This document shows, piece after piece, positions 2,599 to 61,044 of a stretch of 64,000 nucleotides of DNA. This stretch comes from Oscillospiraceae bacterium (GTDB lineage: Bacteria > Bacillota > Clostridia > Oscillospirales > Oscillospiraceae). The DNA is taken from the NCBI GenBank assembly GCA_017545165.1, contig JAFWQQ010000054.1:10279-74278 (forward strand), in the 5' to 3' direction. The notes beneath the pieces were generated by a model that had not been told where the DNA came from, made no database searches, and saw nothing but the letters and a program-made list of their open reading frames with translations. The number at the start of each line of letters is the position of its first letter. Within the stretch, counting starts at the first letter, position 1. A program made the translations under genes and the position numbers.

Positions 2599-4077
2599 TT
2601 ATAGAACCTCCTTGCGGTAGAATTGCTGTATTTTTTCCTTGTCTGCGCAGGTTTCGCCGATCTTCTGGATGTACTCCAGCGGATACTTCGGCGCCATCAG
2701 ACGGATGTTGCGCCCGTCCCCCGGGGCGATGAGCTTGGTGGAGCCGCCGCCGCCCATGGCCAGAATGCTGCACAGCTCCTCCATGATGCAGATGTTGTAG
2801 AGATTGGCGAAGCCCGGCTTGGTCCAGCCCACATTTTCAAAGCCGCCGGACATGAACTTCTGCCGGTAGAGGTAATAGGGCTCGTAGCCCGTGCCCCGCA
2901 GGCGCGCCGCCGCCTCGTCCAGCATGGCGGAGACCTCCGCCTCTCCGGGCAGGGGCGCCCCCTCCAGGGTGATGCGGCTGCCCTTCTTCAGGCTCAGGGT
3001 GTGGACCGTGATGTTTTCCGCCCCCAGGGCCAGCACCGCGTCCAGGGTCCGGGAAAAGCCCGCCGGATCATCCCCGGGCAGACCGGCGATCAGGTCCATG
3101 TTCACGGAAAAGCCGCCCACCCGGCGCACCTTCTCCAGGGCCGAGAGGATATCCTTTGCCGTGTGCCGGCGGCCGATGGTCTCCAGCACCGCGTCGGACA
3201 TGGTCTGGGGGTTCACGCTGACCCGGTCCACCCCGTGCCGGCGCAGGACCCGCAGCTTCTCCTCCGTGATGGTGTCGGGCCGGCCGGCCTCCACCGTGTA
3301 CTCCCGCAGGGCGGAGAGATCGAATTCCGCCTCCAGCAGGGAGCATACCCGCTCCAGCTGCTCCGGAGACAGGGTGGTGGGGGTGCCGCCGCCGAAGTAG
3401 ATCGACACGGGCCGAAGCCCCAGCGCCCGGACCTGGGCCGCGGTGGAGCGGATCTCCTGCTCCAGAGCGTCCACAAAGGGCGGGATCAGCTTCATGCTCT
3501 TCTCCACGGACTGGCTCACGAAGCTGCAGTAGGCGCAGCGGGTGGGGCAGAAGGGGATGCCCACATAGAGGCACAGGTCCCCGGGGCCCAGGCTGGCCTC
3601 GGCGCGCATGGTGTGGCGGGCGGCGTCCAGGCACAGGGCCGTGCGCTCCGGGGACACGTCGAACTCCTCCATGAAGCGCGCCGCCGCCTCCCGCTCACCG
3701 CAGCCCTGCCGCAGAAAGCCGCAGAGGAGCTTTCCCGGCCGCACGCCGGTGAGGGCGCCCCAGACGGGCTTGCGGCGTCCGGCCCGCAGCGCCGCCCGGT
3801 ACATGGCGTTTTTCACCAGACGCTGGCACTTCCGGTCGGTGACGAGGGGATCGGTCAGCGCCTCGCTGCGCACGGCGGCCCGGCCCCGGAAGCTGCCCGC
3901 TTCCGTGACCAGCAGACAGCCGGCGGTGGTGAAGGTCCCGCCCCGGCGGAGAGAGACCTCCAGCCGCGGCCCATGGGGCTTCCCCTCCGGGTATTCCGGC
4001 CGCTCCGAGGGAAACAGGGTCAGCAGCATCTGCTCTACCGCATATTTATATGTATGCCCGCTGAGATAGATCTTCAC
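2599..4077 (-). CDS. hemZ: radical SAM coproporphyrinogen-dehydrogenase-family protein (HemZ-like)
   Basis: CPTRCAYCSF (CxxxCxxC) and GGGTPT motifs. Start assigned to the GTG at 4077 (VKIYLSGHTYKY...) behind GGAAGGA. The 805-aa ORF upstream extension overlaps the CarD-family gene on the other strand and is not coding. Confidence 0.8.
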   Translation of the reverse strand: MKIYLSGHTYKYAVEQMLLTLFPSERPEYPEGKPHGPRLEVSLRRGGTFTTAGCLLVTEAGSFRGRAAVRSEALTDPLVTDRKCQRLVKNAMYRAALRAGRRKPVWGALTGVRPGKLLCGFLRQGCGEREAAARFMEEFDVSPERTALCLDAARHTMRAEASLGPGDLCLYVGIPFCPTRCAYCSFVSQSVEKSMKLIPPFVDALEQEIRSTAAQVRALGLRPVSIYFGGGTPTTLSPEQLERVCSLLEAEFDLSALREYTVEAGRPDTITEEKLRVLRRHGVDRVSVNPQTMSDAVLETIGRRHTAKDILSALEKVRRVGGFSVNMDLIAGLPGDDPAGFSRTLDAVLALGAENITVHTLSLKKGSRITLEGAPLPGEAEVSAMLDEAAARLRGTGYEPYYLYRQKFMSGGFENVGWTKPGFANLYNICIMEELCSILAMGGGGSTKLIAPGDGRNIRLMAPKYPLEYIQKIGETCADKEKIQQFYRKEVL

Positions 4078-41088: not shown

Positions 41089-41724
41089 ATGGATCAACAA
41101 CGGATCGGACAATTCATACAGGAACAGCGAAAGACTCGCGGTATGACGCAGCAGGAGCTGGCCGATCAGCTGGGCGTCACCAATAAGGCGGTTTCCAAGT
41201 GGGAAAAAGGACACTCTATGCCGGATGTCGCGCTGTTTGAGCCGCTATGCAAAGAGTTGGAGATCAGCATCCCGGAGCTGTTGTCCGGTCGAAGAATTGA
41301 CGCTGAGGATCAGCAGCAAACTGCGGAACAGTTGCTGATGGAGTCGATCAGTATGCGAAAGTTGATCGGCCTTTCCGTTTTCCTTCAGCTCAACAGCATC
41401 ATTGGTGTGCTGCTCGTGATCAGTCCCTTCCTGTTTCACCCGGAACGCCCCTTGAATCTATTGCTGGTCGTCCTGGGATTTGTAGAATGTGCCATGGTCG
41501 TCTATTTTGACAGCACATTGCCCGGCAAGGAAGCGCGGCGGCAATCGCTGACCGTGCGCTTCGTCTACACGATTTGCCTGTTTCTGACCATCGCGGCGAT
41601 CAACTATCCCGCGTCCGTGCGCGAGGGAGTCCCGCTCACCACGGAGATCCTGGTTTTCCTGATTCCCTGTGTCCTTGCGCTTTTGATTCAGTTTTTCATC
41701 TGGCGATCCCACAGGAACAAATAA
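41089..41724 (+). CDS. XRE-family HTH regulator fused to a multi-TM C-terminal domain
   Basis: MDQQRIGQFIQEQRKTRGMTQQELADQLGVTNKAVSKWEKGHSMPD HTH_3 motif, followed by about 4 hydrophobic segments. GGAGGG RBS. Confidence 0.8.
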   Translation: MDQQRIGQFIQEQRKTRGMTQQELADQLGVTNKAVSKWEKGHSMPDVALFEPLCKELEISIPELLSGRRIDAEDQQQTAEQLLMESISMRKLIGLSVFLQLNSIIGVLLVISPFLFHPERPLNLLLVVLGFVECAMVVYFDSTLPGKEARRQSLTVRFVYTICLFLTIAAINYPASVREGVPLTTEILVFLIPCVLALLIQFFIWRSHRNK

Positions 41725-41782: not shown

Positions 41783-41971
41783 TTATTCTTCTGTGACCAC
41801 GATTTTGAATTTGATGACGCCGAGCTTTGTTTCCTTCCCACATTCCGGGCAACAAAGCGGGAAATTCAGCAGAACGGTGTCCTCATAGAGCTTGATATCC
41901 GTTTTCGTCCCACATTTCGGGCACGGCAGCCATAGGGTCTTTTTCTCTTGTTCGTCCATAAACGTCTTCAC
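41783..41971 (-). CDS. cysteine-rich KTR-type small protein
   Basis: 62 aa. CPKCGTKT...CCPECGKETK are two CxxC pairs with the KT(R/K) signature. Confidence 0.65.
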   Translation of the reverse strand: MKTFMDEQEKKTLWLPCPKCGTKTDIKLYEDTVLLNFPLCCPECGKETKLGVIKFKIVVTEE

Positions 41972-41976
41972 CTCCC

Positions 41977-44217
41977 TCAGCCGTAATGTTCTGACATGTA
42001 AAGGCTCAGTTTGCTTTGAATCAGCCTCGCCGCTTCCTCGGCGCTCTCTTTCCCGGCAAGGAAAGCGTTGATTTCGGTTTTCAGCGTGTCGATCACCACA
42101 TCGTCCCGGATCACCAGTCGATCAGTCCCGTAGACCAGCTCGCGCATCACAGCAGCGTCTTTCTCGTTAAAGGATTCATAGTCGTTCACATTGCTCTGCT
42201 GCCGCTGCATACTATTCTCTACTGCTCGCTCAAAGCCAGCGCGTAACACGGGGATACCATCAGTCAGATACGGCTCGTCCTCTCCCTGCATAAAGGTCTT
42301 GACGAAGCGCCAGGCACCGTCTTTGTTTTCACTGGAGGCCAGAACGCCAAGGCTCGTATTGCAGCCAGACGTCCACATCATGCCGTCTCCCAGCATAAGT
42401 TGACCGCTATGTCCCATTCCTTCCGCAGGCAACAGCTTCATGAAGTAGGTTCCTGTACCCGTTGAGCCGGGGAAGCCGAGAACAGCCGCTTCATCCTTGA
42501 AGGTCATGCGTGGACGGTAGCCTGCCTCGGAAGCAAAGTCATAGGAGATCAGCCAGTCGCAGCCGGGACTAAAGAAGGATGCTCCTTCCGGTGAAATGAC
42601 CGGGAGGCGTTTCATCAGCTCCAGCCAGCCGACAAAGGCGGGGCTGTCGAAGCAGCAAGTACCGCTGCTCCGGTCCATAAACTCTGCCGTAGCCGCCCAG
42701 GAGAACAGTATTATCATTTGCTCCTGTGTCATGTAGGGCGCGCCATCTTCCTGCGTGAGCACTTCTATTGCTTTTTCGGGCGTCCATTCCTCCCGGCTGA
42801 TTCCAAGATGCTCTGCGCCAAGTATAGTCAGCAGAGTGAATTTGTCCGTGTACTCATACAGGCCGCCTCTCTCGGTCAGCGCGGAAAAGAGACTGGGAAT
42901 GAAATCTTCCCGGCTGATATCCGGATCAGCGTCGATATAGGGCAGAAGATCGACCAAAAGCTGCCGATCCACCGCGCCGGGCGGGAGCAAGCTGGTGTCC
43001 AGCACATCAATCTCGTTCTCTGTCGCAAGCTGGATCATCAGCTTGTTCCGCTCCGCTTCGTCATGCCACACCATAGGCTTGATGGCAATGCGGTATTCCG
43101 GGTCCGTCTGATTGAAACGCATGATCGCATCCAGCAGCACCTCCGGGCAGGTGTAGTCGGTTTCGCTGTACTCATAGCCCTGGGCCGTGGCATCGGCAAA
43201 GCAGCCCAGCGTCAGCGTCTTCTTCACCGGCACCATGCCGGGACTTACTTTTGTGAGCTTGTTGTTCGCCAAATAGAATAGGTCACCGTTAGAATTCTCC
43301 AGCCCGAGGTAGGCGCTGTAGCCCTGCAGACTCGCGTAATTAAGGGCGACATCCATCCAGTTGAAAATCGGGCTCATGCTTCCGGTGCCCGGGTCGTATT
43401 CCTGCAGCTTCCGCTCCTTTGTGACCAGGATGCGGCCCCGCTGACTGCTGTAAACCGGCTCCCACAGAAGGCCCTCCAAGGGCTTTCCGCATTGGAGCGT
43501 GTCCGGATCAAAAGGGCAATACCCGTCATAGGTGGATAAATAGAGCGCATCGCTGATCCAAATGCATTGTGTAAAACCCATCAACGGCAGATCGAGCTTA
43601 TCGAGTATCTGTGCGTCCCGGTTGATGAGACGCACGGTCTCGTCGTCGTTCAGGATCGCTCGCTCTTTGTCCAGAGCGACAAGCCCGGTCAGATAGGGGT
43701 CGCTGTCATTCCCATTTCTCCAGAAGTCGATGCATGTGCAGGTCTGTGCGCCGCTTTGCGTATCCAGCACGATCAGGAAATAATGCAGCTTGCGAGAGAA
43801 ATCCCGCCTGACCATTTCCTCATCGGAATAGCCCTCCATCAGTCGTACCCAGACGGCGCCATCTGCCACGGAGAATGCTTCGATCCGCGGGTACTTTGCA
43901 TCGCCTGTTTCCAGTTCCCAGCTTTGCCACTCGTCAGCAAGGGTATCATAGCGCAGCACAGCAAATCCGCCGTCTGGCGTCTCTGCATGAAGGTACAGAC
44001 TGTCACCTAAGCTTTGCAGTCCACCAAAGTCTTGATAGCCCTCCGGCATGGGCAACTCGGTAGTGATAAAGCCCTGTTCTGTCTCAGCAGAGATTTGCGG
44101 CTCACCGATCACAATAACCTCGGCATCTTCTCCCAATGTAAGCTTCCCACAGGCGCAGAGCGAGGCAAGCATAGCCAGCGTCAGCAGAAAACCCAATATT
44201 CTGTTTGTTTTACTCAT
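41977..44217 (-). CDS. large lipoprotein: N-terminal beta-rich domain of about 330 aa plus C-terminal extracellular solute-binding-protein-like domain (paralog 1)
   Basis: MSKTNRILGFLLTLAMLASLCACG lipobox. The C-terminal half has SBP-like features (...GFPGSTGTGTYF..., ...AEEAARLIQSKLSLYMSE). Paralogous to 56858-59032 and 62186-64000. Confidence 0.75.
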   Translation of the reverse strand: MSKTNRILGFLLTLAMLASLCACGKLTLGEDAEVIVIGEPQISAETEQGFITTELPMPEGYQDFGGLQSLGDSLYLHAETPDGGFAVLRYDTLADEWQSWELETGDAKYPRIEAFSVADGAVWVRLMEGYSDEEMVRRDFSRKLHYFLIVLDTQSGAQTCTCIDFWRNGNDSDPYLTGLVALDKERAILNDDETVRLINRDAQILDKLDLPLMGFTQCIWISDALYLSTYDGYCPFDPDTLQCGKPLEGLLWEPVYSSQRGRILVTKERKLQEYDPGTGSMSPIFNWMDVALNYASLQGYSAYLGLENSNGDLFYLANNKLTKVSPGMVPVKKTLTLGCFADATAQGYEYSETDYTCPEVLLDAIMRFNQTDPEYRIAIKPMVWHDEAERNKLMIQLATENEIDVLDTSLLPPGAVDRQLLVDLLPYIDADPDISREDFIPSLFSALTERGGLYEYTDKFTLLTILGAEHLGISREEWTPEKAIEVLTQEDGAPYMTQEQMIILFSWAATAEFMDRSSGTCCFDSPAFVGWLELMKRLPVISPEGASFFSPGCDWLISYDFASEAGYRPRMTFKDEAAVLGFPGSTGTGTYFMKLLPAEGMGHSGQLMLGDGMMWTSGCNTSLGVLASSENKDGAWRFVKTFMQGEDEPYLTDGIPVLRAGFERAVENSMQRQQSNVNDYESFNEKDAAVMRELVYGTDRLVIRDDVVIDTLKTEINAFLAGKESAEEAARLIQSKLSLYMSEHYG

Positions 44218-45567: not shown

Positions 45568-45595
45568 GGGAAAACCTCCTTGAGAGCTCTCATCC

Positions 45596-45626
45596 CTATA
45601 GACGGAAAGCATTTCGACGGGTTACA
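45596..45626 (-). promoter_or_regulatory. ECF-type bipartite promoter motif TGTAACC-N15-CGTCTATAG upstream of sigma gene 1
   Basis: The same motif with the same spacing occurs at 59052-59082 upstream of lipoprotein paralog 2. Confidence 0.5.
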
Positions 45627-45668
45627 AGAAAAGCTGCTATTTCTTCACTGAGTATAGCACATAGATGC

Positions 45669-45714: not shown

Positions 45715-48477
45715 TTATCGTTCCGGAATCTCCAGCCAGAAATAGCAATCGTCGCCCAGGCGGTCAAACAACCCTTCGCCTTCGTTGACAATGCAGGCTT
45801 GGACGAAATAGAAATAGCAGAGATACTTGCCCGGAGCAAGGCCGTCAAGCAGCGAAATGTCGGACACGATCGATGATTGCTGCCTTGTTTCGTTATACAG
45901 CGTTTCGCTCTTCAGCTGTTCCCCTGTCTTCCCATCGAGTAAATAGAAGACAAGTGTGATCGTGTTCTCCGGCATCCGGACCCGCAGTTCGCCGGCCATC
46001 CGCAGCGTGGGAATCTCGTCCGCATGTTCCTCAAGCGCCAACACAATCGTTTCGCCAGAATGCAGAATCGGATAGGGATCGACAGTGATGTTTCCGCTGG
46101 TGACCGACAGCTTTGGCCGTTCATTCTCCCCTTGCCATAAGGCGACCGGCACCCCATTCTCGGCGAAGTACACCGCCGCCGCTCCACGCTCAAGGGGGAC
46201 AATCACCGCCCAAACCGGACTTGCGCCATCGACGATCCAAACGACGCTATCGGGCAGCTCCGAACTGAAGAAATGGAGCTGCATATCTGCCACGCGAGGG
46301 GCAATTTGTTCATACTGCTCGCCCCACTGCAGGTGGACAACACTTGCAAGGTCCACGTAGATTTGGTTGAGAACGACCAACTCTTGATCCAGTGAGAAAC
46401 CGGACTCGGCAAAGCTTAACAGGTCATTCGGTCTGTTATCGCCGCTCTGATCCTCATAGCGGGCCAGAGCTATATCGAACGGCGCGGGGTAGAGCCGGTG
46501 CAGCTTGGAAAGCAGCGCTGCAAAAGCCTCGGCATTGGCACCGTCGAGGTCGTGGATCAGCGGAAGCAGTTTCTCGATTTGCCCGCAGTCCAAGCGGTGT
46601 GTTTCTGCGTATTGGCCGATCAATTCACACAGTCGAACGACTCCACCGGGGTCCTGATCCGCCCAGCGTGTCAGAGATAGCGGTACAGATCCGCTGTTCT
46701 GATTGGCCTCATCCAATTCGCTGAACATCTGTTCAATCCTTATTTCATCGTCCGCAGTCAAGCCTGTTTCTACCGGCTTTCCCGCTTCGTATGTCGCCCA
46801 GGCCATCAGTTCGTCCATCAGGTTTTTGCCGCAGTCGAAGGAAACCACCATTGACTGGGAAGATAGCAAATTGTGTGCATAGCAGTTCATTTCTGAATCC
46901 GGGGCAGTTTGCTCAAAGCTCAGACACCAATAGTCATCTCCGCGCAGGTATATCTGCCGCGATGGCTCAACTGTCGTAAACCCTTGAATGGCCTGTGCAG
47001 TCCATGTCTGTGAACTAATGATTTCATGAAAGCTCTTGCCGGATTTCTCGTAAGAACGGCCTGTATTGTCAATCAGAGTGACAATTTCAGCATTGGAGAA
47101 GCTGAGAAGAAAGCTCAGAGGATCGGAGAGAATGAGTTCGGTATCGAAAGTCTGCTCCGGCCTGCGATCCGGCTCCGTGGAGGGGGCGGGGATGAAGGTC
47201 GCCAGCGCCGCCTCATAGTCCCCGGCGCCAGTGCGGTAATATCGTATATCGTTGCCGAAGCGGACGGCGGCGAGGCGCTCGGACTGATAAACGATGATCC
47301 GGTAATCGTCCTCGATCACGAACTCAAGATAGCCGCGCGGTTCGGGAGACGACGACGGCGCACGCCGCTTCGTCCATTCCGCGCTCTCCAAAAACTGCGC
47401 CAGCGCCTTGCTGTCCGCGACGCCGGGCTGAACGCCGTCAGAGTCTGCCGGGTACAGATTGGCGTAGGGCGCGGTGTCGTTCTGCCCGATCAGAGTGATC
47501 GCGTTTTTGTAGTTTAGGAAGGAAAGGTCCGGGCCGTCGTCCTTCGGGTTCGTCAGGAAGCAGACCGCAATGACCGCACAGGCAATCAGCGCCGCGACGA
47601 TTATCCAGAACGCGGGCTTTCTATAATTCAGCACGCCCTTCACCCGCTCCTTCACGCCGACTTCCCCGAAAGCAAGCGGGCAGGCCAGGATCAGCCGCCG
47701 CTGCATGCTGCACGAGACAAGCGCGTTGGCATAGGCTTTCTTTTCAGCCATTGCCATGTCGGAGATTACTTTCTCGTCGCAAGCCGCTTCAATATCCCGG
47801 CAAAGCAGGATGTAGGCGACCCAGACCAGAGGATTAAAACAATACACGGTGAGAAGAAGAAAACCGAGTGGCTTCCAAAGGTGGTCTTTTCGCTTCAGAT
47901 GGGAGCGCTCATGGGCCAGAACGTAGGCGGTTTCTTTTTCGTTCAAGCCGGAGGGCAGATAGATTCGCGGACGGAACACGCCCAAAATGAACGGCGTTTT
48001 CACTTGATCGCAAAGCCAAGTGTTTTTCTCATACGGGATCGCTTCCGTAACCTTACGACGCAGGCGGAGATAGCTGATAAGCCCGTATAAAAGAAGGATA
48101 ACTATGCCACCTACCCATACAAGGCCGCCCAGATACAGAACGATTTGCATGGGATTCACGCTGTTCATGGGAGTCGCGGCCAGGGAGGTTCCGAGCGTCG
48201 GATTGACCGCGTTGTCAATGACGGAAACGCCGCTGTTGATCTCGGGATGCTGGGCGTAGCCGATCGACGGGCTGATCACCTCTGCGCTCGGGATCAAGCT
48301 GAGAACCGACTGCAAAGAAAACGGGAATACAAGCCGCAAGCCCACGAGACCCCAGAGTACGACGGAGATCCATTTCGGTGCTTTCTTCAGAAGAAGGCGC
48401 AACAGCATGACCGCGAGGATCAGCCATCCTGCGGAGATGCTCATATTCAAAACTTTTATGAATACGGCTTCCATCAT
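45715..48477 (-). CDS. BlaR1-like M56 metallopeptidase signal transducer with a C-terminal extracellular region of about 600 aa that is not penicillin-binding-like
   Basis: N-terminal TM region with the LAHERSHLKRKDH (HExxH) motif and ...CDEKVI. After a further TM segment (FWIIVAALIACAVIAVCF) the remainder has no SxxK/PBP motifs. Confidence 0.8.
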   Translation of the reverse strand: MMEAVFIKVLNMSISAGWLILAVMLLRLLLKKAPKWISVVLWGLVGLRLVFPFSLQSVLSLIPSAEVISPSIGYAQHPEINSGVSVIDNAVNPTLGTSLAATPMNSVNPMQIVLYLGGLVWVGGIVILLLYGLISYLRLRRKVTEAIPYEKNTWLCDQVKTPFILGVFRPRIYLPSGLNEKETAYVLAHERSHLKRKDHLWKPLGFLLLTVYCFNPLVWVAYILLCRDIEAACDEKVISDMAMAEKKAYANALVSCSMQRRLILACPLAFGEVGVKERVKGVLNYRKPAFWIIVAALIACAVIAVCFLTNPKDDGPDLSFLNYKNAITLIGQNDTAPYANLYPADSDGVQPGVADSKALAQFLESAEWTKRRAPSSSPEPRGYLEFVIEDDYRIIVYQSERLAAVRFGNDIRYYRTGAGDYEAALATFIPAPSTEPDRRPEQTFDTELILSDPLSFLLSFSNAEIVTLIDNTGRSYEKSGKSFHEIISSQTWTAQAIQGFTTVEPSRQIYLRGDDYWCLSFEQTAPDSEMNCYAHNLLSSQSMVVSFDCGKNLMDELMAWATYEAGKPVETGLTADDEIRIEQMFSELDEANQNSGSVPLSLTRWADQDPGGVVRLCELIGQYAETHRLDCGQIEKLLPLIHDLDGANAEAFAALLSKLHRLYPAPFDIALARYEDQSGDNRPNDLLSFAESGFSLDQELVVLNQIYVDLASVVHLQWGEQYEQIAPRVADMQLHFFSSELPDSVVWIVDGASPVWAVIVPLERGAAAVYFAENGVPVALWQGENERPKLSVTSGNITVDPYPILHSGETIVLALEEHADEIPTLRMAGELRVRMPENTITLVFYLLDGKTGEQLKSETLYNETRQQSSIVSDISLLDGLAPGKYLCYFYFVQACIVNEGEGLFDRLGDDCYFWLEIPER

Positions 48478-48836
48478 TTGTCCTCCGCTTCGTCGATCAT
48501 CCTGCGGATCGCAGCCGCTTCCTCCGCAGACAGTCTTCCGTTTTTGGTAAAAGCCGCGATGAACGCGGGCAGCGACCCATCAAAGGAATCCTCCACGAAC
48601 TGCCTCGACTGCAGCGCGTAAAACTGTTCTCTCGAGATAAGGGAAGTAACCGTCCCCTTGTTATTCACGAACAGTCCCTTATCGCACAGGCGCTTGATGA
48701 CGGTATGCGTCGTCGTGCGCTTCCAACTAAATGCTTTTTCTGCTAAATTGACAAGCTCCGTAGAAGTGACAGGCTCATTTGCCCAGATCAAATCCGCAAA
48801 ACGGCTTTCAATGATGCCCAATTGGATATCGGCCAT
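48474..48836 (-). CDS. BlaI/MecI/CopY family transcriptional repressor
   Basis: 120 aa with a winged-helix N-terminus (...TSTELVNLAEKAFSWKRTTTHTVIKRLCDKG). 4-nt overlap with the M56 gene. Confidence 0.85.
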   Translation of the reverse strand: MADIQLGIIESRFADLIWANEPVTSTELVNLAEKAFSWKRTTTHTVIKRLCDKGLFVNNKGTVTSLISREQFYALQSRQFVEDSFDGSLPAFIAAFTKNGRLSAEEAAAIRRMIDEAEDK

Positions 48837-50583: not shown

Positions 50584-50682
50584 GTTCTATCTCTCCTTGT
50601 TGTTGAGCGCTCTCACCCATATACTTGCCGTTTGCGGCGCTGCGGTTGCAGGTTTTTCTTTTTTTATATCATATTTTCGGAG

Positions 50683-54311: not shown

Positions 54312-55100
54312 TTATGACAAGATAAAAGCAATGTAGTCTTTCGCCGCAAATTGGAGGTCGGGCAATGAGAGTGCGTCACAGAGCTTTCCGCTGCGATCAC
54401 CCCGAAGAAAGCCCATAAGATTCTCTTGCAAGGATCGAAGCTTATCAGCCAAATCTTGCTTGCCTGCCAGTTCCATCATTGTGATACCATCGAGAAGCAA
54501 CGGGCGGAACAGTGTGTTCAAGACGGCGAGATATTCTTCCGGCGGATGCACCGACTCTGCGAACCGGACAATAGCGTCGACGTTTTCCTGAAGAATTAAA
54601 GCCGACATCTCTTTGATGGGAGTCAAGTCAACAGAGTGCGAGAGCGTCGGTTGAACACTGCCAACCGCTGCCCTTGAATCTACGGATGCAAGAAGCTCTC
54701 CTTCATCCAATAATAGTTCCGTTTTCTCTCCGCTGTCTTTGTATGTGGGATTTAGAAAATGAAATTCACCGTCATATCCTGTAAATACAACCGCGTGTTT
54801 TCCATACGGTGTACGAATCCCAAGCATGGCTGGCCCACCGCTAATGAGCTCCTGACAAAGTGAGCTTTTGCTGATTGATGCTTCCATCATGGTAAAACCA
54901 TGCGGTAGGAGCCAGAGATTAAACCATTTTGCTCCCTGCAGCATAGGCCCCGAAAGGAAAGCGCCGTCTTCTTTGGAAAACAGTTTCGGAAGCTCCATTT
55001 CCAACGCAATGATAGTATCTTCGGTATCATAGCCCTGCATTTCCAGCAGATTCGCTAACGCAGCATAGGAACAGGAAGCCTTGAAGTGCATATATTTCAC
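54312..55100 (-). CDS. hypothetical protein with C39/BtrH-like cysteine-peptidase features
   Basis: 262 aa. N-terminal ...KASCSYAALANLLEMQGY (Cys) and later YGKHAVVFTGYDGEFHFLNP (His) resemble papain-like C39/BtrH_N folds. Assigned from motifs only. Confidence 0.45.
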   Translation of the reverse strand: MKYMHFKASCSYAALANLLEMQGYDTEDTIIALEMELPKLFSKEDGAFLSGPMLQGAKWFNLWLLPHGFTMMEASISKSSLCQELISGGPAMLGIRTPYGKHAVVFTGYDGEFHFLNPTYKDSGEKTELLLDEGELLASVDSRAAVGSVQPTLSHSVDLTPIKEMSALILQENVDAIVRFAESVHPPEEYLAVLNTLFRPLLLDGITMMELAGKQDLADKLRSLQENLMGFLRGDRSGKLCDALSLPDLQFAAKDYIAFILS

Positions 55101-55118: not shown

Positions 55119-55439
55119 TCATTCTACCCAATAGCCTTTGCCCCAGGCGGTTTTGACCATGGCAAAGGGCTTGTGGTCGTGCAGCTTTTCCCGGATATGC
55201 CGGACGTGAACCGCCAAGCAGTCGTTGCGTCCGATGGATACCTCGTCTTGCCAGACTGCGTCAGACAGCTCCTGCGCGGGCACAACACGCCCTCTGTTTT
55301 CCATAAGAAAGCGGAGAATGGCAAACTCCGTGTTGGTCAGAGGGACAGGCTCTCCGCGAAGAGTGCATCTTTGCCTGAGTGGATCAAGTGTGATATCTCT
55401 GTGTCGTAAGCTGTTGGTTGAGCAAAGCATGGTATCCAA
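55119..55439 (-). CDS. stand-alone OmpR/PhoB-type winged-helix DNA-binding protein (no receiver domain)
   Basis: 106 aa. ...LTNTEFAILRFLMENRGRVVPAQELSDAVW...VHVRHIREKL...VKTAWGKGYWVE is a Trans_reg_C domain. Confidence 0.8.
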   Translation of the reverse strand: MDTMLCSTNSLRHRDITLDPLRQRCTLRGEPVPLTNTEFAILRFLMENRGRVVPAQELSDAVWQDEVSIGRNDCLAVHVRHIREKLHDHKPFAMVKTAWGKGYWVE

Positions 55440-55454
55440 GCAAAATCATTCCTT

Positions 55455-56786
55455 TCAAAAGGCCGGGGCGAGGATTTGGCTCGGCTCCCCGTCGATCAGG
55501 CAGTCAATCCGAAGAAGTGGATGATAATAGCCTTTCCCGTCAATGCTCCATGTGAGTTCAGCACTCCGACATTCGAGCTGACGGATCTGCGCAGCATATG
55601 TTCCATCCAGGATAGAGAAGCGACCTTGTCGCAGCGCTTTTTCCAGCCCTGCTGTATCCAAGGCAGCACAGTCCGAGCCACGCTGGAGAGCGTTGACCTT
55701 CATTGATATCTTAGTGATGCTGTCTGCACCGCTTGTTACCTGGATCATCCCATCATAGAGCATGCCGCTTGATGGGACGAAGTGCCAGACAAGACTGTTT
55801 TCTCCCACTTCACTTGGCTCCGGGAACGAATAACCCGCATGTTCCAGTACCTGCAAAGCCGTATCTGCTGCGGTCCCCTCTGTAGGCAGCCCGTTCGGAA
55901 TGTACAGATCAAACTGACCGGTGTAATAGTACCAAAGGTACTCGTTAGAGCCTTCAGCCCGGTAGACCGCAAGATCGTCATAGGCATCCGAAGAGTCCGC
56001 TTTCCTTGCCCGGCCGAGCGCTTCAAGCAGGCGATCGGCAGTCGCTTCTGCCTCGCTTCTCGGCGGGCTGAAAAGCTGATAGACGGTCACGCTCGCGGGC
56101 AGCTGCCCGTCCAGTGCCTCAAGCTTAACCTCCTGCGGCTTCCCGTGTGTATGGTCAGGGAAATCCTGCCGCACGAATCCATAGGGGCGCGCAGACAGCC
56201 ATAGCAGTCCGGCAGCAAGGACAGCTACAGGCAGTATCGCTGCGAAGGCTGAAGTCAGCACCGGCTTTCGGCTCTTGAGGTTTGTATAGCACTCTCCGAG
56301 GCATAATCCCCAGATCGCACCGAGGCTGTTTGCGAGCAGGTCGTCGATGTCCATCGCGCCAAGCCGTGCAACGTACTGTGTGCATTCGATCAGCGAAGGA
56401 AACAGAATCGCCAGCAAATAGAGCCGCTTTCCCTTCTTTATGCCCTGCGCGTGCCAAACGAGAAGCAATCCAAGCGGAACAAAGGCAAGAATATTGAGGG
56501 CTAGCTGGATTGCCGCATGCCTGTCAGCGCTGGTAAGGGCCTCATGGAGCGCTTCAAACGGATGTATATTACTTGCATGAATCAAAGGCGAGCGGTTGCC
56601 GAACACAACAAGTGCCAGAATGCAAAGATACCACAGTGTCAAAAACCACTTGATTCGAAAAGACTTATCCAGTTCTCGCTTTTTCCAAGGCCGCAGCACA
56701 AAAAGAACATAAAGCAGTCCGGACAGCAGCAGAGAAAGGAGGCCGTATTTCCCGCCGATCTGCAAATAGTGTTTCAAAGAAGCCAT
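55455..56786 (-). CDS. VanZ-like membrane protein fused to an extracytoplasmic domain of about 250 aa
   Basis: The N-terminal 190 aa have the VanZ pattern (NILAFVPLGLLL...DIDDLLANSLGAIWG). A further TM segment and an uncharacterised domain follow. GGGGTGAAGG RBS before 56786. Confidence 0.7.
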   Translation of the reverse strand: MASLKHYLQIGGKYGLLSLLLSGLLYVLFVLRPWKKRELDKSFRIKWFLTLWYLCILALVVFGNRSPLIHASNIHPFEALHEALTSADRHAAIQLALNILAFVPLGLLLVWHAQGIKKGKRLYLLAILFPSLIECTQYVARLGAMDIDDLLANSLGAIWGLCLGECYTNLKSRKPVLTSAFAAILPVAVLAAGLLWLSARPYGFVRQDFPDHTHGKPQEVKLEALDGQLPASVTVYQLFSPPRSEAEATADRLLEALGRARKADSSDAYDDLAVYRAEGSNEYLWYYYTGQFDLYIPNGLPTEGTAADTALQVLEHAGYSFPEPSEVGENSLVWHFVPSSGMLYDGMIQVTSGADSITKISMKVNALQRGSDCAALDTAGLEKALRQGRFSILDGTYAAQIRQLECRSAELTWSIDGKGYYHPLLRIDCLIDGEPSQILAPAF

Positions 56787-56857
56787 ACCTTCACCCCTTT
56801 TTCTGCTGTATTTTACCATATCTGGCACGAGACTGTCTCTTAAGCTTTCTTAACGGC

Positions 56858-59032
56858 TCAGCCCTGTTCGGCGACGTAGAGCCTTGCGCTGCTTTGGATA
56901 CGGTCGGCTGCCTCGTCAAGGCTGATCTGGCCGCCGAAGTAGGCCCGCGCGTTCGTTTTGATCATGTCAAGCAGCGTTTCGTCGCAGCGCACCAGCTTGT
57001 CCGTCGCATACACAAGCTCCCGCAGTCTTTGCGCGTCGTCGGCGTTGAAGTTATCAAAGCCCTGCACGATCTGATCCGAGATGCTTGCCTGCAAAGCGGC
57101 CTCAAAGCTGCTTTGCAGCACGGGAATTCCGTTCATGATATCACTCTCCGCGGCGTTTGTCAGCAGCAGACGGATGAGCTGCCACGCGCCGTTCGGGTGC
57201 TGAGAGGAAGCCATAATGCCGAGGCGCGTCGCCGCGCCTGCCGTTGTCCGAAATTGATCCGGGCCGGTTCCGAGCTGGATGAAATAACAGCCGCTGCCGC
57301 TCGTGCCGGGGAAGCCGCAATAAACGTAATCGTCCTGCAGCGCCATGCGGATCGTCGCCCCGGTGTTCGCGGCAAGATCCCAGCTCATATAGAGAAGCTG
57401 CGGATCTTCAGTATATTCGGCACTGTAAGGCGCGTCCTTCACGAGCTGCAACCATGCCTTGAATTCCGGGCTGTCGAAGGAACTGCTGCCGTTTTCCCAA
57501 TCCACGAACTCCGCCGTGGCCATCTTGGCCAGCATGTCCAGAAGAACCTCCCGGTCCTGCCATGAGGGGAAAAGCTGCCAGTTGTCCGGCATTTCCCGCA
57601 TCTGCTCTGTCGCTTCCTCCACCGTCCAGGCGTCGCGTCCTGGGAAGCGATCCGGGTGCGCGGCAAAGCCGATGAGAGTGACCCGCGCAGTCAGTTCATA
57701 GAGCCCGCCGTTTTTCAGCATGGCGTTCAGCAGGGGCTGAATGAAATCCTCCCGGCTCAGGTCAGGGTCTGCATCAAGATACGGAAGCATATCCAGGAGC
57801 AGGCCACTGTCCAGACTGAGCTCCGGCAGTCCGGCGGTGTCCAGAATGTCGATGCCGCTGCCTGTGGCAAGCTCAATGAGGCGCTTGTCTCGCTGTCCTT
57901 CAGCGTCGAAATCGAGCTTCCGGATCTCCACCTTGTAGTCGGGATTCGTATTGTTGAAGCGGATCACGGCGTCCAGCAGGTCACGGGAAATGCCGGTTTC
58001 CGGATCTATCAAAAAGCCAGCCTGCGCACCGCCAAAGCTGCCCAGAACGAGCGTCTGCCGCTCCTTGATCATTCCTTGCGTAACTTTGATCACGGATTTT
58101 CCATCCATGACAGGATAGAAAAAGTCCCCGGCGCTGTTTTCAAACAGCGCATACCCACCCTTGCTGGCATAGCTCAATGCCACGTCGATCCAGCGGAAAA
58201 GCCGTTCCTTTACCGCACCGCTCTCCGGGTCGATCTCACAGACCGTACCATCCACGCTGTTGAGCCAGCGGCCGTTTTCACTGAAAAAGCTGCCTGCAAA
58301 CTCCAGCTCCCGCGCGGGACTGAAGCTCAGGGTTTCAGGGGAAAAGCTGCAGGTGCCCACGACATAGTTCTGCCCTTCCATGTGCCCCGTGTGATACAGG
58401 CGCTCCGTTCCGGAGCGTAGGCTGCTTTGAAAGACGGTGCCCTGCAGATCCAACTTCTGCTGCAGATTCATCTCTCGGTCTACGACATAGCCCTGTTCAC
58501 CGGCGCAGAGGATCGCCCGGTTTTCATCTAAAGCAAGGATTCCCGAAAAATACAGACCGGAAGCCTCTGTTGACTCGCCACCCGAAAATGGGATCACCTG
58601 TACGCTGCCGGTGCTGCCCTGCGTTCTGTCGCAGAAGTACATCCAATATTGAGACTCCATCGACTGCTCGGTTCGGCTCTCCAACAGCGCCCAGACCGCA
58701 TTGCCCGAGACGGACAGACCACGCAGCGCAACGGAACCGGGGATCGCGTTGCTGTCATAGGTAAGCAGCGTCCAATCGTCGTTTACGGTATCATAGCAGC
58801 CGATCAGGGCTTCGCCCGTATAGCCGGAGAGGAACAGCGTGTCTCCTTGCGCATCCCATTCGCTGTTTACCCTGCCGAGCTCTTTGGGGACGGAGATTTC
58901 TGAGGGGATGTAGCCGGGAACGGCGTTCCCCTCGACGACCAGTTCGGCAGGCTGTTCCGTCTGCTTGCCGCAGGCGGAAAGGGAGAGTATCATCAGGTAT
59001 GCAAGAAGCATGCAAATCAGTTTTTTGCTCAT
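56858..59032 (-). CDS. large lipoprotein, beta-rich N-domain plus SBP-like C-domain (paralog 2)
   Basis: MSKKLICMLLAYLMILSLSACG lipobox. Shares DPDYKVEIRK..IELATGSGIDILDT..DMLPYLDADPDLSREDFIQPL..GGLYELT with paralogs 1 and 3. Confidence 0.75.
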   Translation of the reverse strand: MSKKLICMLLAYLMILSLSACGKQTEQPAELVVEGNAVPGYIPSEISVPKELGRVNSEWDAQGDTLFLSGYTGEALIGCYDTVNDDWTLLTYDSNAIPGSVALRGLSVSGNAVWALLESRTEQSMESQYWMYFCDRTQGSTGSVQVIPFSGGESTEASGLYFSGILALDENRAILCAGEQGYVVDREMNLQQKLDLQGTVFQSSLRSGTERLYHTGHMEGQNYVVGTCSFSPETLSFSPARELEFAGSFFSENGRWLNSVDGTVCEIDPESGAVKERLFRWIDVALSYASKGGYALFENSAGDFFYPVMDGKSVIKVTQGMIKERQTLVLGSFGGAQAGFLIDPETGISRDLLDAVIRFNNTNPDYKVEIRKLDFDAEGQRDKRLIELATGSGIDILDTAGLPELSLDSGLLLDMLPYLDADPDLSREDFIQPLLNAMLKNGGLYELTARVTLIGFAAHPDRFPGRDAWTVEEATEQMREMPDNWQLFPSWQDREVLLDMLAKMATAEFVDWENGSSSFDSPEFKAWLQLVKDAPYSAEYTEDPQLLYMSWDLAANTGATIRMALQDDYVYCGFPGTSGSGCYFIQLGTGPDQFRTTAGAATRLGIMASSQHPNGAWQLIRLLLTNAAESDIMNGIPVLQSSFEAALQASISDQIVQGFDNFNADDAQRLRELVYATDKLVRCDETLLDMIKTNARAYFGGQISLDEAADRIQSSARLYVAEQG

Positions 59033-59051: not shown

Positions 59052-59082
59052 CTATAAACGCTTTTTTCGTGCTTTGGTTACA
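59052..59082 (-). promoter_or_regulatory. ECF-type bipartite motif TGTAACC-N15-CGTTTATAG upstream of lipoprotein paralog 2
   Basis: Same half-sites and the same 15-nt spacing as 45596-45626. Lies 20 nt upstream of the ATG at 59032. Confidence 0.5.
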
Positions 59083-60344: not shown

Positions 60345-60366
60345 GTTTACGACCTCCTTTCACGCA

Positions 60367-60450
60367 TAAGAACGCGGCATCAGAATGCTTTGTCGCACGA
60401 AAAATTTTTATTTTTCCTGTGCGACAAACTGCCGGGTGCGCGCGTTCTTA
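60367..60450. promoter_or_regulatory. mirror-symmetric divergent promoter region: GTGCGACAAA-N14-CGTTCTTA in both orientations
   Basis: Plus strand 60419-60450, minus strand 60398-60367. The two GTGCGACAAA boxes also form an 8-10 bp inverted repeat around an AT-rich 20-mer. Confidence 0.5.
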
Positions 60451-60486
60451 ATAGTGAGAGATCATATAGAAAGAGGGAATCTCAAG

Positions 60487-61044
60487 TTGAAAGAAGCAAG
60501 GCTACTGCGGCGCTTACAAAATGGAGAGAGCGCAGCCTTGGGCGAGATCATGAAGTTGTATACTCCATATGTCGCTGCCATCGTGAGGAATATCATCGAC
60601 CCGCCCCTGCAGGAAGAGGATGTAGAGGAGGTCGTAGCCGATGTGTATTTATCTCTTTGGAAGAATGCCGCTGATATAGAAGACGGCAAGCTCCGCCCCT
60701 GGCTCGCCGCCGTGACACGAAACCGCGCCAAAGATAAGCTCCGCGCGCTGCATCTGAATCTTCCGTTGGAGGATGATGCCCTGGAGCTGATCGCGGATGG
60801 ACCCGAAACCGAGGCCGTACGGCAGGAGGCCATTCAGGCGACAAAGGAGGCGGTAGACTCTCTCGGAGAGCCGGATCGCTCCATTTTCCTGCGATACTAT
60901 TACCTGTATCAAAAGACCGATGAGATCGCCGCAGCCATGGGCTTAAAGCCGTCCATCGTCCGGAACCGGCTCTCCCGGGGTCGGGAAAAGCTGAAAACAC
61001 GTTTGGTGGAAAGGGGGCTTTGCTATGAAGCTGAGTATTGCTGA
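60487..61044 (+). CDS. ECF sigma-70 family sigma factor, pair 5 (TTG start)
   Basis: (M)KEARLLRRLQNGESAALGEIMKLYTPYV...EDVEEVVADVYLSLW (region 2) and ...TDEIAAAMGLKPSIVRNRLSRGREKL (region 4). AGAGGGA RBS 7 nt before the TTG. Confidence 0.8.
   Translation: MKEARLLRRLQNGESAALGEIMKLYTPYVAAIVRNIIDPPLQEEDVEEVVADVYLSLWKNAADIEDGKLRPWLAAVTRNRAKDKLRALHLNLPLEDDALELIADGPETEAVRQEAIQATKEAVDSLGEPDRSIFLRYYYLYQKTDEIAAAMGLKPSIVRNRLSRGREKLKTRLVERGLCYEAEYC

Follow-up and report, generated by a model that had tools for sequence, protein, structure and literature searches.

An ECF-type promoter motif shared by a sigma factor operon and a lipoprotein gene in an Oscillospiraceae genome of the genus Candidatus Limivicinus

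The DNA analysed here is a stretch of 64,000 nucleotides (the window; positions 10279-74278 of contig C106) from a metagenome-assembled genome (MAG; G000) of the genus Candidatus Limivicinus (Oscillospiraceae), whose MAGs originate from rumen and from chicken and human gut. The assembly comprises 2.4 Mb in 121 contigs, is 74.6 % complete and has a G+C content of 60.5 %. The window contains two copies of the bipartite motif TGTAACC-N15-CGTYTATAG, one in front of an operon that begins with a gene for an extracytoplasmic function (ECF) sigma factor, designated sigma 1, and one in front of a lipoprotein gene, designated lipoprotein B. With a probability of about 60 %, both copies are promoters read by an ECF sigma factor of the sigma-1 orthogroup. 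This shared-sigma reading is the best available interpretation of the sequence data, and sigma 1 itself appears to be the best fit for the lipoprotein B site among several paralogous sigma factors.

Both copies lie on the minus strand. The first (45626-45596) reads TGTAACC cgtcgaaatgctttc CGTCTATAG, and the ATG of sigma 1 (45567) follows 28 nt further on; the second (59082-59052) reads TGTAACC aaagcacgaaaaaag CGTTTATAG, with the ATG of lipoprotein B (59032) 19 nt further on. Both have a 15-nt spacer. An earlier reading of the window made from the sequence alone (the sequence-only reading) had placed both copies at exactly these coordinates with the same spacer length and had put the ATG about 30 and 20 nt away. 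It had also likened the two half-sites to the AAC (-35) and CGT (-10) elements of ECF promoters, which agrees with the published architecture (PMC5758882); read in that form, with a spacer of 14-17 bp, both sites are TGTAAC-c+15-CGTC/T. The lipoprotein B site is intergenic, and a GGAG ribosome-binding site is found downstream of the predicted transcript start.

The motif is rare. With up to two mismatches allowed, TGTAACC-N15-CGTYTATAG matched twice in the window against 0.01 matches expected from dinucleotide-preserving shuffles, and two relaxed patterns (TGTAACC-N14-16-CGTYTA; GTAACC-N14-17-CGTYTA) run over all 2.4 Mb of the assembly matched only the sigma-1 and lipoprotein B sites, so that the box is confined to the upstream regions of these two genes. 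The same relaxed patterns gave no match in a reversed-sequence control of the assembly, and by arithmetic (15 fixed bases and one two-fold position) about 0.002 matches are expected by chance on both strands of 2.4 Mb. A comparable frequency in random sequence, which the sequence-only reading had named as grounds for abandoning its claim, was thus not seen. The spacers of the two promoters have 1 of 15 bases in common and their flanks are unrelated; that only the half-sites are kept fits selection by a common sigma factor and is not what a recent duplication predicts.

Sigma 1 belongs to the ECF (group 4) sigma-70 family, with regions 2 and 4 only in its 185 aa. Its Pfam scores exceed the cutoffs for Sigma70_r2 (40.7 bits), Sigma70_r4_2 (42.8) and Sigma70_ECF (36.6), and it scores 75.9 bits against TIGR02937 (sigma70-ECF; cutoff 42.9). 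All NCBIfam equivalog and subfamily models stayed under their cutoffs (for example SigW, 46.9 against 209 bits, and SigX, 38 against 260), which rules out its assignment to a named equivalog. Searches of the genome by tblastn gave 13 or more ECF sigma genes, which fall into two main clades: seven sigma-1-like paralogues (52-67 % identity to sigma 1), five sigma-3/4-like genes and sigma 5. Seven ECF sigma genes lie on contig C106 in a stretch of about 25 kb, and others are found on contigs C6, C15, C18, C27, C50 and C72; five sampled congeners had 7-9 sigma matches each.

Each sigma-1-like gene is preceded by a box of the form xxAACC/xxGACC-N15/16-CGTxTAT, 30-60 nt before its ATG (at sigma 2 the -10 element is CAAGTAT). 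These boxes differ from each other by few bases, and among the sigma promoters of the genome TGTAACC occurs at sigma 1 only. The TGCAACC-N16 box in front of sigma 2 had been described as a weaker variant of the motif, ending at 50617. The box does exist and starts at 50650, while its end lies at 50619, the earlier end being 2 nt too far, and it is better regarded as sigma 2's own distinct promoter, one of seven such promoters.

The lipoprotein B site fits models built without it. A matrix made from the seven sigma-1-like sigma sites with the lipoprotein B site excluded (matrix A) placed that site second in a genome-wide scan, at 23.5 bits, with the best non-family site at 18.1. When the sigma-1 site was also left out and only six sigma-1-like autoregulatory sites were used (matrix B), the lipoprotein B site ranked third (21.0 bits) and the sigma-1 site fifth (20.4), the best background site scoring 17.4. 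The family sites span 17.2-21.3 bits under matrix B, their low end being barely apart from the background, whereas the lipoprotein B site is clearly apart from it and is the genome's best non-sigma match to a model built without it. Compared base by base, the lipoprotein B site differs from the sigma-1 promoter at none of 8 positions in the -35 element and 1 of 9 in the -10 element, with equal spacers of 15 nt; from the next best, the C6 promoter, at 3/8 and 1/9 (spacer 15); and from the sigma-5 promoter at 4/8 and 3/9 (spacer 16).

The box at sigma 1 itself is conserved. When 168 genomes of the genus were searched with a strict pattern, six of them (G064, G131, G132, G141, G153 and G170) proved to have the sigma-1 promoter, before sigma orthologues of 79-97 % identity, the sigma open reading frame (ORF) running off the end of the examined stretch in G132 and G170. 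G076 has a diverged sigma-1 promoter in front of a sigma factor of 64 % identity, with most of the spacer changed and CGTTTATAG as the -10 element; the C/T difference between the two copies in the window therefore also occurs within the sigma-1 orthogroup. An own-gene box, the signature of autoregulation, is thus kept at sigma 1 and seven orthologues (64-97 % identity) while the flanks diverge. The signature of this orthogroup is TGTAACC/CGTYTATAG; that of another orthogroup, C106c, is GACC-N15-(C/T)GTAATATAT and is kept in G000, G017 and G010.

The lipoproteins point in the same direction. Lipoprotein B is 34 % identical over its full length to lipoprotein A, the product of the third gene of the sigma-1 operon, and this paralogy makes a shared regulator biologically sensible; it adds to the functional link between the two modules that the motif had suggested to the sequence-only reading. 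That reading had also proposed autoregulation of sigma 1 together with control of the lipoprotein gene, and both parts are favoured by the sequence and by the comparison with relatives, although the choice of sigma 1 is better put as the best fit among paralogues.

Lipoprotein B would probably have a second ECF input. Directly upstream of it lies a gene for a smaller lipoprotein resembling solute-binding proteins (SBPs), and the interval between this SBP-like gene and the divergent sigma 5 gene (60366-60451) contains two facing, mirrored boxes of the form TGCGACA-N16-CGTTCTTAW. Because the SBP-like gene has a sigma-5-type promoter and no terminator was found in the 64-nt spacer that separates it from lipoprotein B, transcription from that promoter likely also reaches lipoprotein B, which would then not be a free-standing unit.

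In the mechanism that we propose, sigma 1 would be held by its membrane partner, a putative anti-sigma factor by the position of its gene, and then released. The box at 45626-45596 would act as the positive-feedback promoter of the operon for sigma 1, the membrane partner, lipoprotein A and a Cys-rich KTR mini-protein, and the box at 59082-59052 as an internal promoter that places lipoprotein B, and probably the VanZ-like, winged helix-turn-helix (wHTH) and C39-like genes after it, under sigma 1. Released sigma 1 would increase expression of its own operon and of lipoprotein B at the same time, and read-through from the sigma-5-type promoter of the SBP-like gene would give lipoprotein B two ECF inputs. 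Basal expression of the sigma-1 operon may be supplied by the sequence TGcTATACT at 45659-45651. Transcripts are predicted to start about 6-8 nt after CGTYTA, with leaders of about 30 nt at sigma 1 and about 20 nt at lipoprotein B. The activity of the boxes, the involvement of sigma 1 and the positions of the transcript starts are inferred.

Several observations weigh against a common sigma factor. The lipoprotein B site is kept only in G064 (locus L111) and G167 (locus L110), which are 98-99 % identical across the region and hence provide no evolutionary test of the site; its spacer is 16 nt in both (A7 for A6), and G064 reads TGTAACA. The MAG G167, which is 83 % complete, has the site and no sigma-1 orthologue among its contigs, its best sigma factor being 67 % identical. 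Conversely, G131, G132, G141, G153 and G170 have sigma-1 orthologues and no lipoprotein B orthologue, and no second sigma-1-type site was found in these five genomes save one GTAAC-N17-CGTTTAT match in G153. Lipoprotein B orthologues of 86 %, 72 % and 44 % identity have other upstream regions, and promoter recognition is often shared in part by ECF paralogues whose boxes are alike (PMC5758882). In G064 sigma 1 is on the same contig as lipoprotein B, 23 kb apart, and across nine genomes the pattern GTAAC-N16/17-CGTYTAT marks the sigma factor's own site and that of lipoprotein B where the gene is present, with extra matches in G172 and G153.

The most serious alternative, which we consider unlikely while keeping it in view, is that the lipoprotein B box works and is read mainly by one or more other paralogous sigma factors, such as the one on C6, whose promoter has the -10 element CGTTTAT in common with the lipoprotein B site. 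Seven sigma-1-like paralogues have closely related boxes, G167 keeps the site although no sigma-1 orthologue is detectable in it, and in Bacillus subtilis CGTC-type promoters are read by 2-4 ECF sigma factors and the -10 element is a main determinant of specificity (PMC5758882). Against this, the C6 promoter has three mismatches in its -35 element beside the single one in its -10 element, and no sigma promoter of the genome except that of sigma 1 reads TGTAACC; a C/T difference at the -10 element also arises inside the sigma-1 orthogroup, in G076; and autoregulatory promoters tend towards selectivity for their own sigma factor (PMC5758882).

It is improbable, in our judgement, that the lipoprotein B box is silent or marginal and that the gene is expressed as the second of an SBP-like operon from the promoter at 60397-60366. 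The unterminated 64-nt spacer would allow this, near-identical relatives differ in the spacer of the box (15 or 16 nt), and the 72 % (L113, exact) and 44 % (G004, partial) orthologues, which lie beside a sigma-5 orthologue, carry sigma-5-type boxes. Against it, a 16-position match that is also correctly oriented and suitably spaced from the ATG is unexpected by chance, lipoprotein paralogues inside operons have no such box, and read-through is compatible with an internal promoter. Least credible of all is that the match arose by chance or is a functionless remnant left by duplication of the sequence upstream of sigma 1. Among paralogous modules in a region of frequent rearrangement duplicated fragments are plausible, yet a remnant would have kept the spacer and flanks too; a duplication relic was rejected because spacers and flanks are unrelated, and the expected numbers of matches given above (0.002 in the assembly, 0.01 in shuffled windows) leave little room for chance. 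Promoters read by a sigma factor of the sigma-1 orthogroup remain our preferred reading.

The orthologues of lipoprotein B suggest how the present arrangement may have come about. The 72 % orthologue is directly beside a sigma-5 orthologue and is flanked by the same mirrored sigma-5-type pair with exact half-sites. At the 44 % syntenic homologue the box is TGAAACG-N16-CGTTTATAA, compared with TGAAACA-N16-CGTTATTAT at the sigma-5 orthologue, a partial match. Upstream of the 86 % orthologue (L112) the sequence is different and contains a 111-aa ORF and a hairpin. Lipoprotein B thus appears to be under the neighbouring sigma factor in other lineages and, because the distant orthologues carry sigma-5-like boxes, the sigma-1-type box would be a recent, lineage-specific addition (G000, G064 and G167 only). 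Gene content between the modules (VanZ-like, C39-like and BlaI/BlaR1-like genes) and downstream varies even among relatives of 98-99 % identity. The A6 run at 59058-59063 (A7 in G064 and G167) could be promoter-tuning slippage or an assembly error.

A candidate for a second matching sigma/lipoprotein promoter pair, from G007 and G033, matched only in part (TGCGACC...CGTCATTAT against TGCGACG...CGTCATATC) and was set aside as suggestive, not decisive; a pattern search for it returned only the lipoprotein sites. In the distant congener G172 (contig C53, locus L080, about 3824-3853), TGTAACC-N15-CGTCTATAG stands directly after a terminator. A membrane-protein gene with a housekeeping-type promoter of its own begins about 190 nt further on, and no sigma or lipoprotein gene follows.

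ECF-type boxes recur in the lipoprotein family at large. Of 36 genomes sampled from the genus, 29 were found to have it, while single genomes sampled from each of 24 other families of the order gave no match. Within the present genome the operon-internal lipoprotein paralogues lack a box of their own, while the two stand-alone genes have one. For family members in public genomes, 61 upstream regions were compared after removal of redundancy. Of these, 48 are without a closely preceding same-strand gene, and in 23 of these 48 stand-alone cases an xxxRACx-N15/16-CGT box lies no more than 130 nt upstream, mostly 45-50 nt from the ATG, compared with 3/13 operon-like cases and 6.9 % of random windows of 130 nt taken from the same loci. 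The figure of 23/48 is approximate and probably an underestimate, some start-codon calls being imperfect and at least that of L110 wrong, and with interrelated family sequences it describes a trend and is no formal test. Direct repeats of TTCTTAAK abut the -35 element of stand-alone lipoprotein promoters at L117, L121, L143, L144, L169 and L170, where the receiver-less OmpR-type winged-helix proteins encoded in these arrays may bind. Another helix-turn-helix protein encoded by the modules is of the XRE type (41089-41724).

An AlphaFold2 model of lipoprotein B, built from 39 homologues (predicted local distance difference test score, pLDDT, 87.5), has two domains. The N-terminal domain (residues ~37-332) is modelled as all-beta with about 28 strands, a number that would fit a seven-bladed propeller. 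The C-terminal domain (~345-724) is modelled with the two-lobed SBP fold of the MalE/CbpC-like solute-binding proteins and resembles the oligosaccharide-binding proteins of ATP-binding cassette (ABC) importers; the best Foldseek match was CbpC (7x0o, 5e-15), followed by 1eu8, 3uor and other sugar-binding or MalE-type proteins, and phmmer gave 3.5e-5 for lipoprotein B against 7x0o. Against Pfam SBP_bac_1 lipoprotein B scored 23.0 bits, under the cutoff of 26, and no NCBIfam model matched. The SBP-like lipoprotein is 32 % identical to residues 352-723, the C-terminal half of lipoprotein B. Since the 24 genes examined from 41 to 64 kb include no permease or ATPase gene, lipoprotein B, despite its SBP fold, probably does not belong to an importer.

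A conserved leader after the sigma promoters, which the sequence-only reading had reported, was also found here: it is TGAGAGCTCTCA at sigma 1 and TGAGAGCGCTCA at sigma 2, and it is present in six of the seven sigma-1-like paralogues and many times in relatives. These leaders are palindromes (GAAAGGCCTTTC, CGAAGGGCCCTTCG and others belong to the same set) whose arms covary between paralogues, and the best palindrome arm in 36 sigma leaders averaged 4.47 nt against 3.33 +/- 0.16 nt in shuffles. The lipoprotein B promoter is without such a leader. Folding of the leader as an RNA hairpin was considered and found unsupported, with z-scores of -0.7, -1.1 and +0.2 for three sigma leaders and -0.15 for that of lipoprotein B, and Rfam gave nothing at the gathering threshold between 41 and 62 kb. 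The palindrome may serve a dimeric factor as operator, or it may reflect some property of the initially transcribed region.

The features of the window are listed in Table 1. The sigma-1 operon is bounded by a strong terminator after the KTR mini-protein gene (41774-41741) and by that of the preceding BlaR1-like gene (45702-45675), just upstream of the sigma-1 motif. The membrane partner of sigma 1 matched no Pfam or NCBIfam family and has no recognisable anti-sigma domain. TGnTATAAT-like boxes similar to the putative housekeeping promoter of the operon are also found upstream of paralogous sigma genes and of sigma-1 orthologues. No strong terminator was found after lipoprotein B, and the VanZ gene is probably co-transcribed with it. 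A BlaI-type repressor and a 920-aa BlaR1/M56 protein are encoded between sigma modules 1 and 2 (45715-48836), and G064 has a second, diverged BlaI/BlaR1 pair after its lipoprotein B operon.

Table 1. Promoters, leaders and genes of the sigma-1, sigma-2, lipoprotein B and sigma-5 regions of the window
Feature	Position	Strand	Basis or remark
Cys-rich KTR mini-protein, last gene of sigma-1 operon	41783..41971	-	Pfam Cys_rich_KTR 9.8e-15
Lipoprotein A, 746 aa, third gene of sigma-1 operon	41977..44217	-	Lipobox LASLCAC
Single-pass membrane partner of sigma 1, putative anti-sigma, 263 aa	44225..45016	-	Start overlaps sigma stop codon
ECF sigma factor 1, 185 aa	45010..45567	-	Pfam, NCBIfam
Palindromic leader TGAGAGCTCTCA	45581..45592	-	At or near predicted transcript start
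ECF-type promoter of sigma-1 operon, TGTAACC-N15-CGTCTATAG	45596..45626	-	Pattern, conserved at orthologues
Extended -10-like TGcTATACT, putative housekeeping-sigma promoter	45651..45659	-	~25 nt upstream of ECF -35; sequence reading
Sigma-2 ECF-type promoter TGCAACC-N16-CAAGTATAT, then leader TGAGAGCGCTCA (50617-50606)	50619..50650	-	20.4 bits
C39-like protein	54312-55100	-	Weak Peptidase_C39_2 match; after wHTH gene
Receiver-less OmpR-type wHTH	55119-55439	-	Trans_reg_C 2e-20; after VanZ gene
VanZ-domain membrane protein	55455..56828	-	29 nt downstream of lipoprotein B; Pfam VanZ
Lipoprotein B, 724 aa, signal peptide and lipobox	56858..59032	-	Translation, AlphaFold2, Foldseek
Sigma-1-type promoter copy TGTAACC-N15-CGTTTATAG	59052..59082	-	In 64-nt spacer between SBP-like gene and lipoprotein B
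SBP-like lipoprotein, 415 aa	59097..60344	-	Directly upstream of lipoprotein B
Sigma-5-type promoter TGCGACA-N16-CGTTCTTAT, before SBP-like gene	60366..60397	-	Mirrors sigma-5 box
Sigma-5 own promoter TGCGACA-N16-CGTTCTTAA	60420..60451	+	Sequence
ECF sigma factor 5, TTG start, divergent from SBP-like gene	60487..61044	+	Pfam Sigma70_r2, Sigma70_r4_2

The mechanism proposed here, an autoregulated ECF sigma factor with a small regulon in trans, is textbook, while the gene family is little studied. If it holds, this would be a first regulon assignment, for one member of a large and otherwise entirely uncharacterised ECF sigma expansion in an uncultured rumen and gut genus. Paralogous modules would then not be insulated, one stand-alone lipoprotein gene listening to two sigma factors, and the wiring would differ between close relatives, offering a natural case for studying how ECF specificity and regulons evolve after duplication. 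A wider view, which we regard as doubtful and offer tentatively, is that the modules, at least seven per genome in Candidatus Limivicinus and none found in the 24 other families sampled, are genus-specific sensors of an extracellular ligand (probably a glycan) in which SBP-fold lipoproteins serve signalling and not transport, and that they have been cross-wired by promoter turnover. Under that view lipoprotein B would have moved in this lineage from sigma-5 control, the state of the 72 % and 44 % orthologues, to control by sigma 5 and sigma 1, with the A6/A7 tract shifting the distance between -35 and -10 elements between 15 and 16 nt.

Among known systems, Bacteroidetes have ECF sigma/anti-sigma pairs that are linked to SusC/SusD polysaccharide utilisation loci. 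As in the present modules, an ECF sigma factor, a membrane anti-sigma factor and a surface glycan-binding lipoprotein are encoded together there, and the higher-scoring NCBIfam hits of sigma 1 include the Bacteroidetes-type models TIGR02985 and sigma_PG0214. Sigma 1 remains under the cutoff of these models (70 against 126 bits and 73 against 130), however, and the host is a Gram-positive-type member of the Oscillospiraceae with no outer membrane, TonB-dependent transporter or FecR-like partner.

The sigma-I/RsgI pairs of cellulolytic clostridia sense polysaccharides and control cellulosome genes. They resemble the present modules in that many pairs of a sigma factor and a membrane partner occur per Clostridia genome, with differing ectodomains and their own promoter variants, and in their tie to carbohydrate-related extracellular proteins. 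They differ in having the sigma-I C-terminal domain, where the sigma factors described here have an ordinary region 2 and region 4_2, and in their carbohydrate-binding modules, which were not detected in the partners here. Such pairs are mentioned for cellulolytic clostridia in PMC7826278.

ECF sigma factors in general are well known for promoters of AAC/CGT architecture, for autoregulation and for the small size of their regulons (PMC5758882, PMC7826278), and in Bacillus subtilis small differences in either promoter element set ECF specificity while overlap is common (PMC5758882). The system described here is unlike that of Bacillus subtilis in that no NCBIfam equivalog or subfamily model, SigW and SigX included, points to orthology, the partner of sigma 1 has no recognisable anti-sigma domain, and the predicted targets are SBP-fold lipoproteins instead of cell-envelope stress genes. 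The promoters are alike, those of sigma-X, -W, -M and -V having a TGnAAC -35 element, a hexamer-to-hexamer spacer of 16-17 nt and a CGTn -10 element (PMC5758882), a notation in which the present sites read TGTAAC-N16-CGTC/T. The arrangement is also alike: in both, each sigma gene has its own box, targets at other loci share that box, and the boxes of paralogues are a few bases apart.

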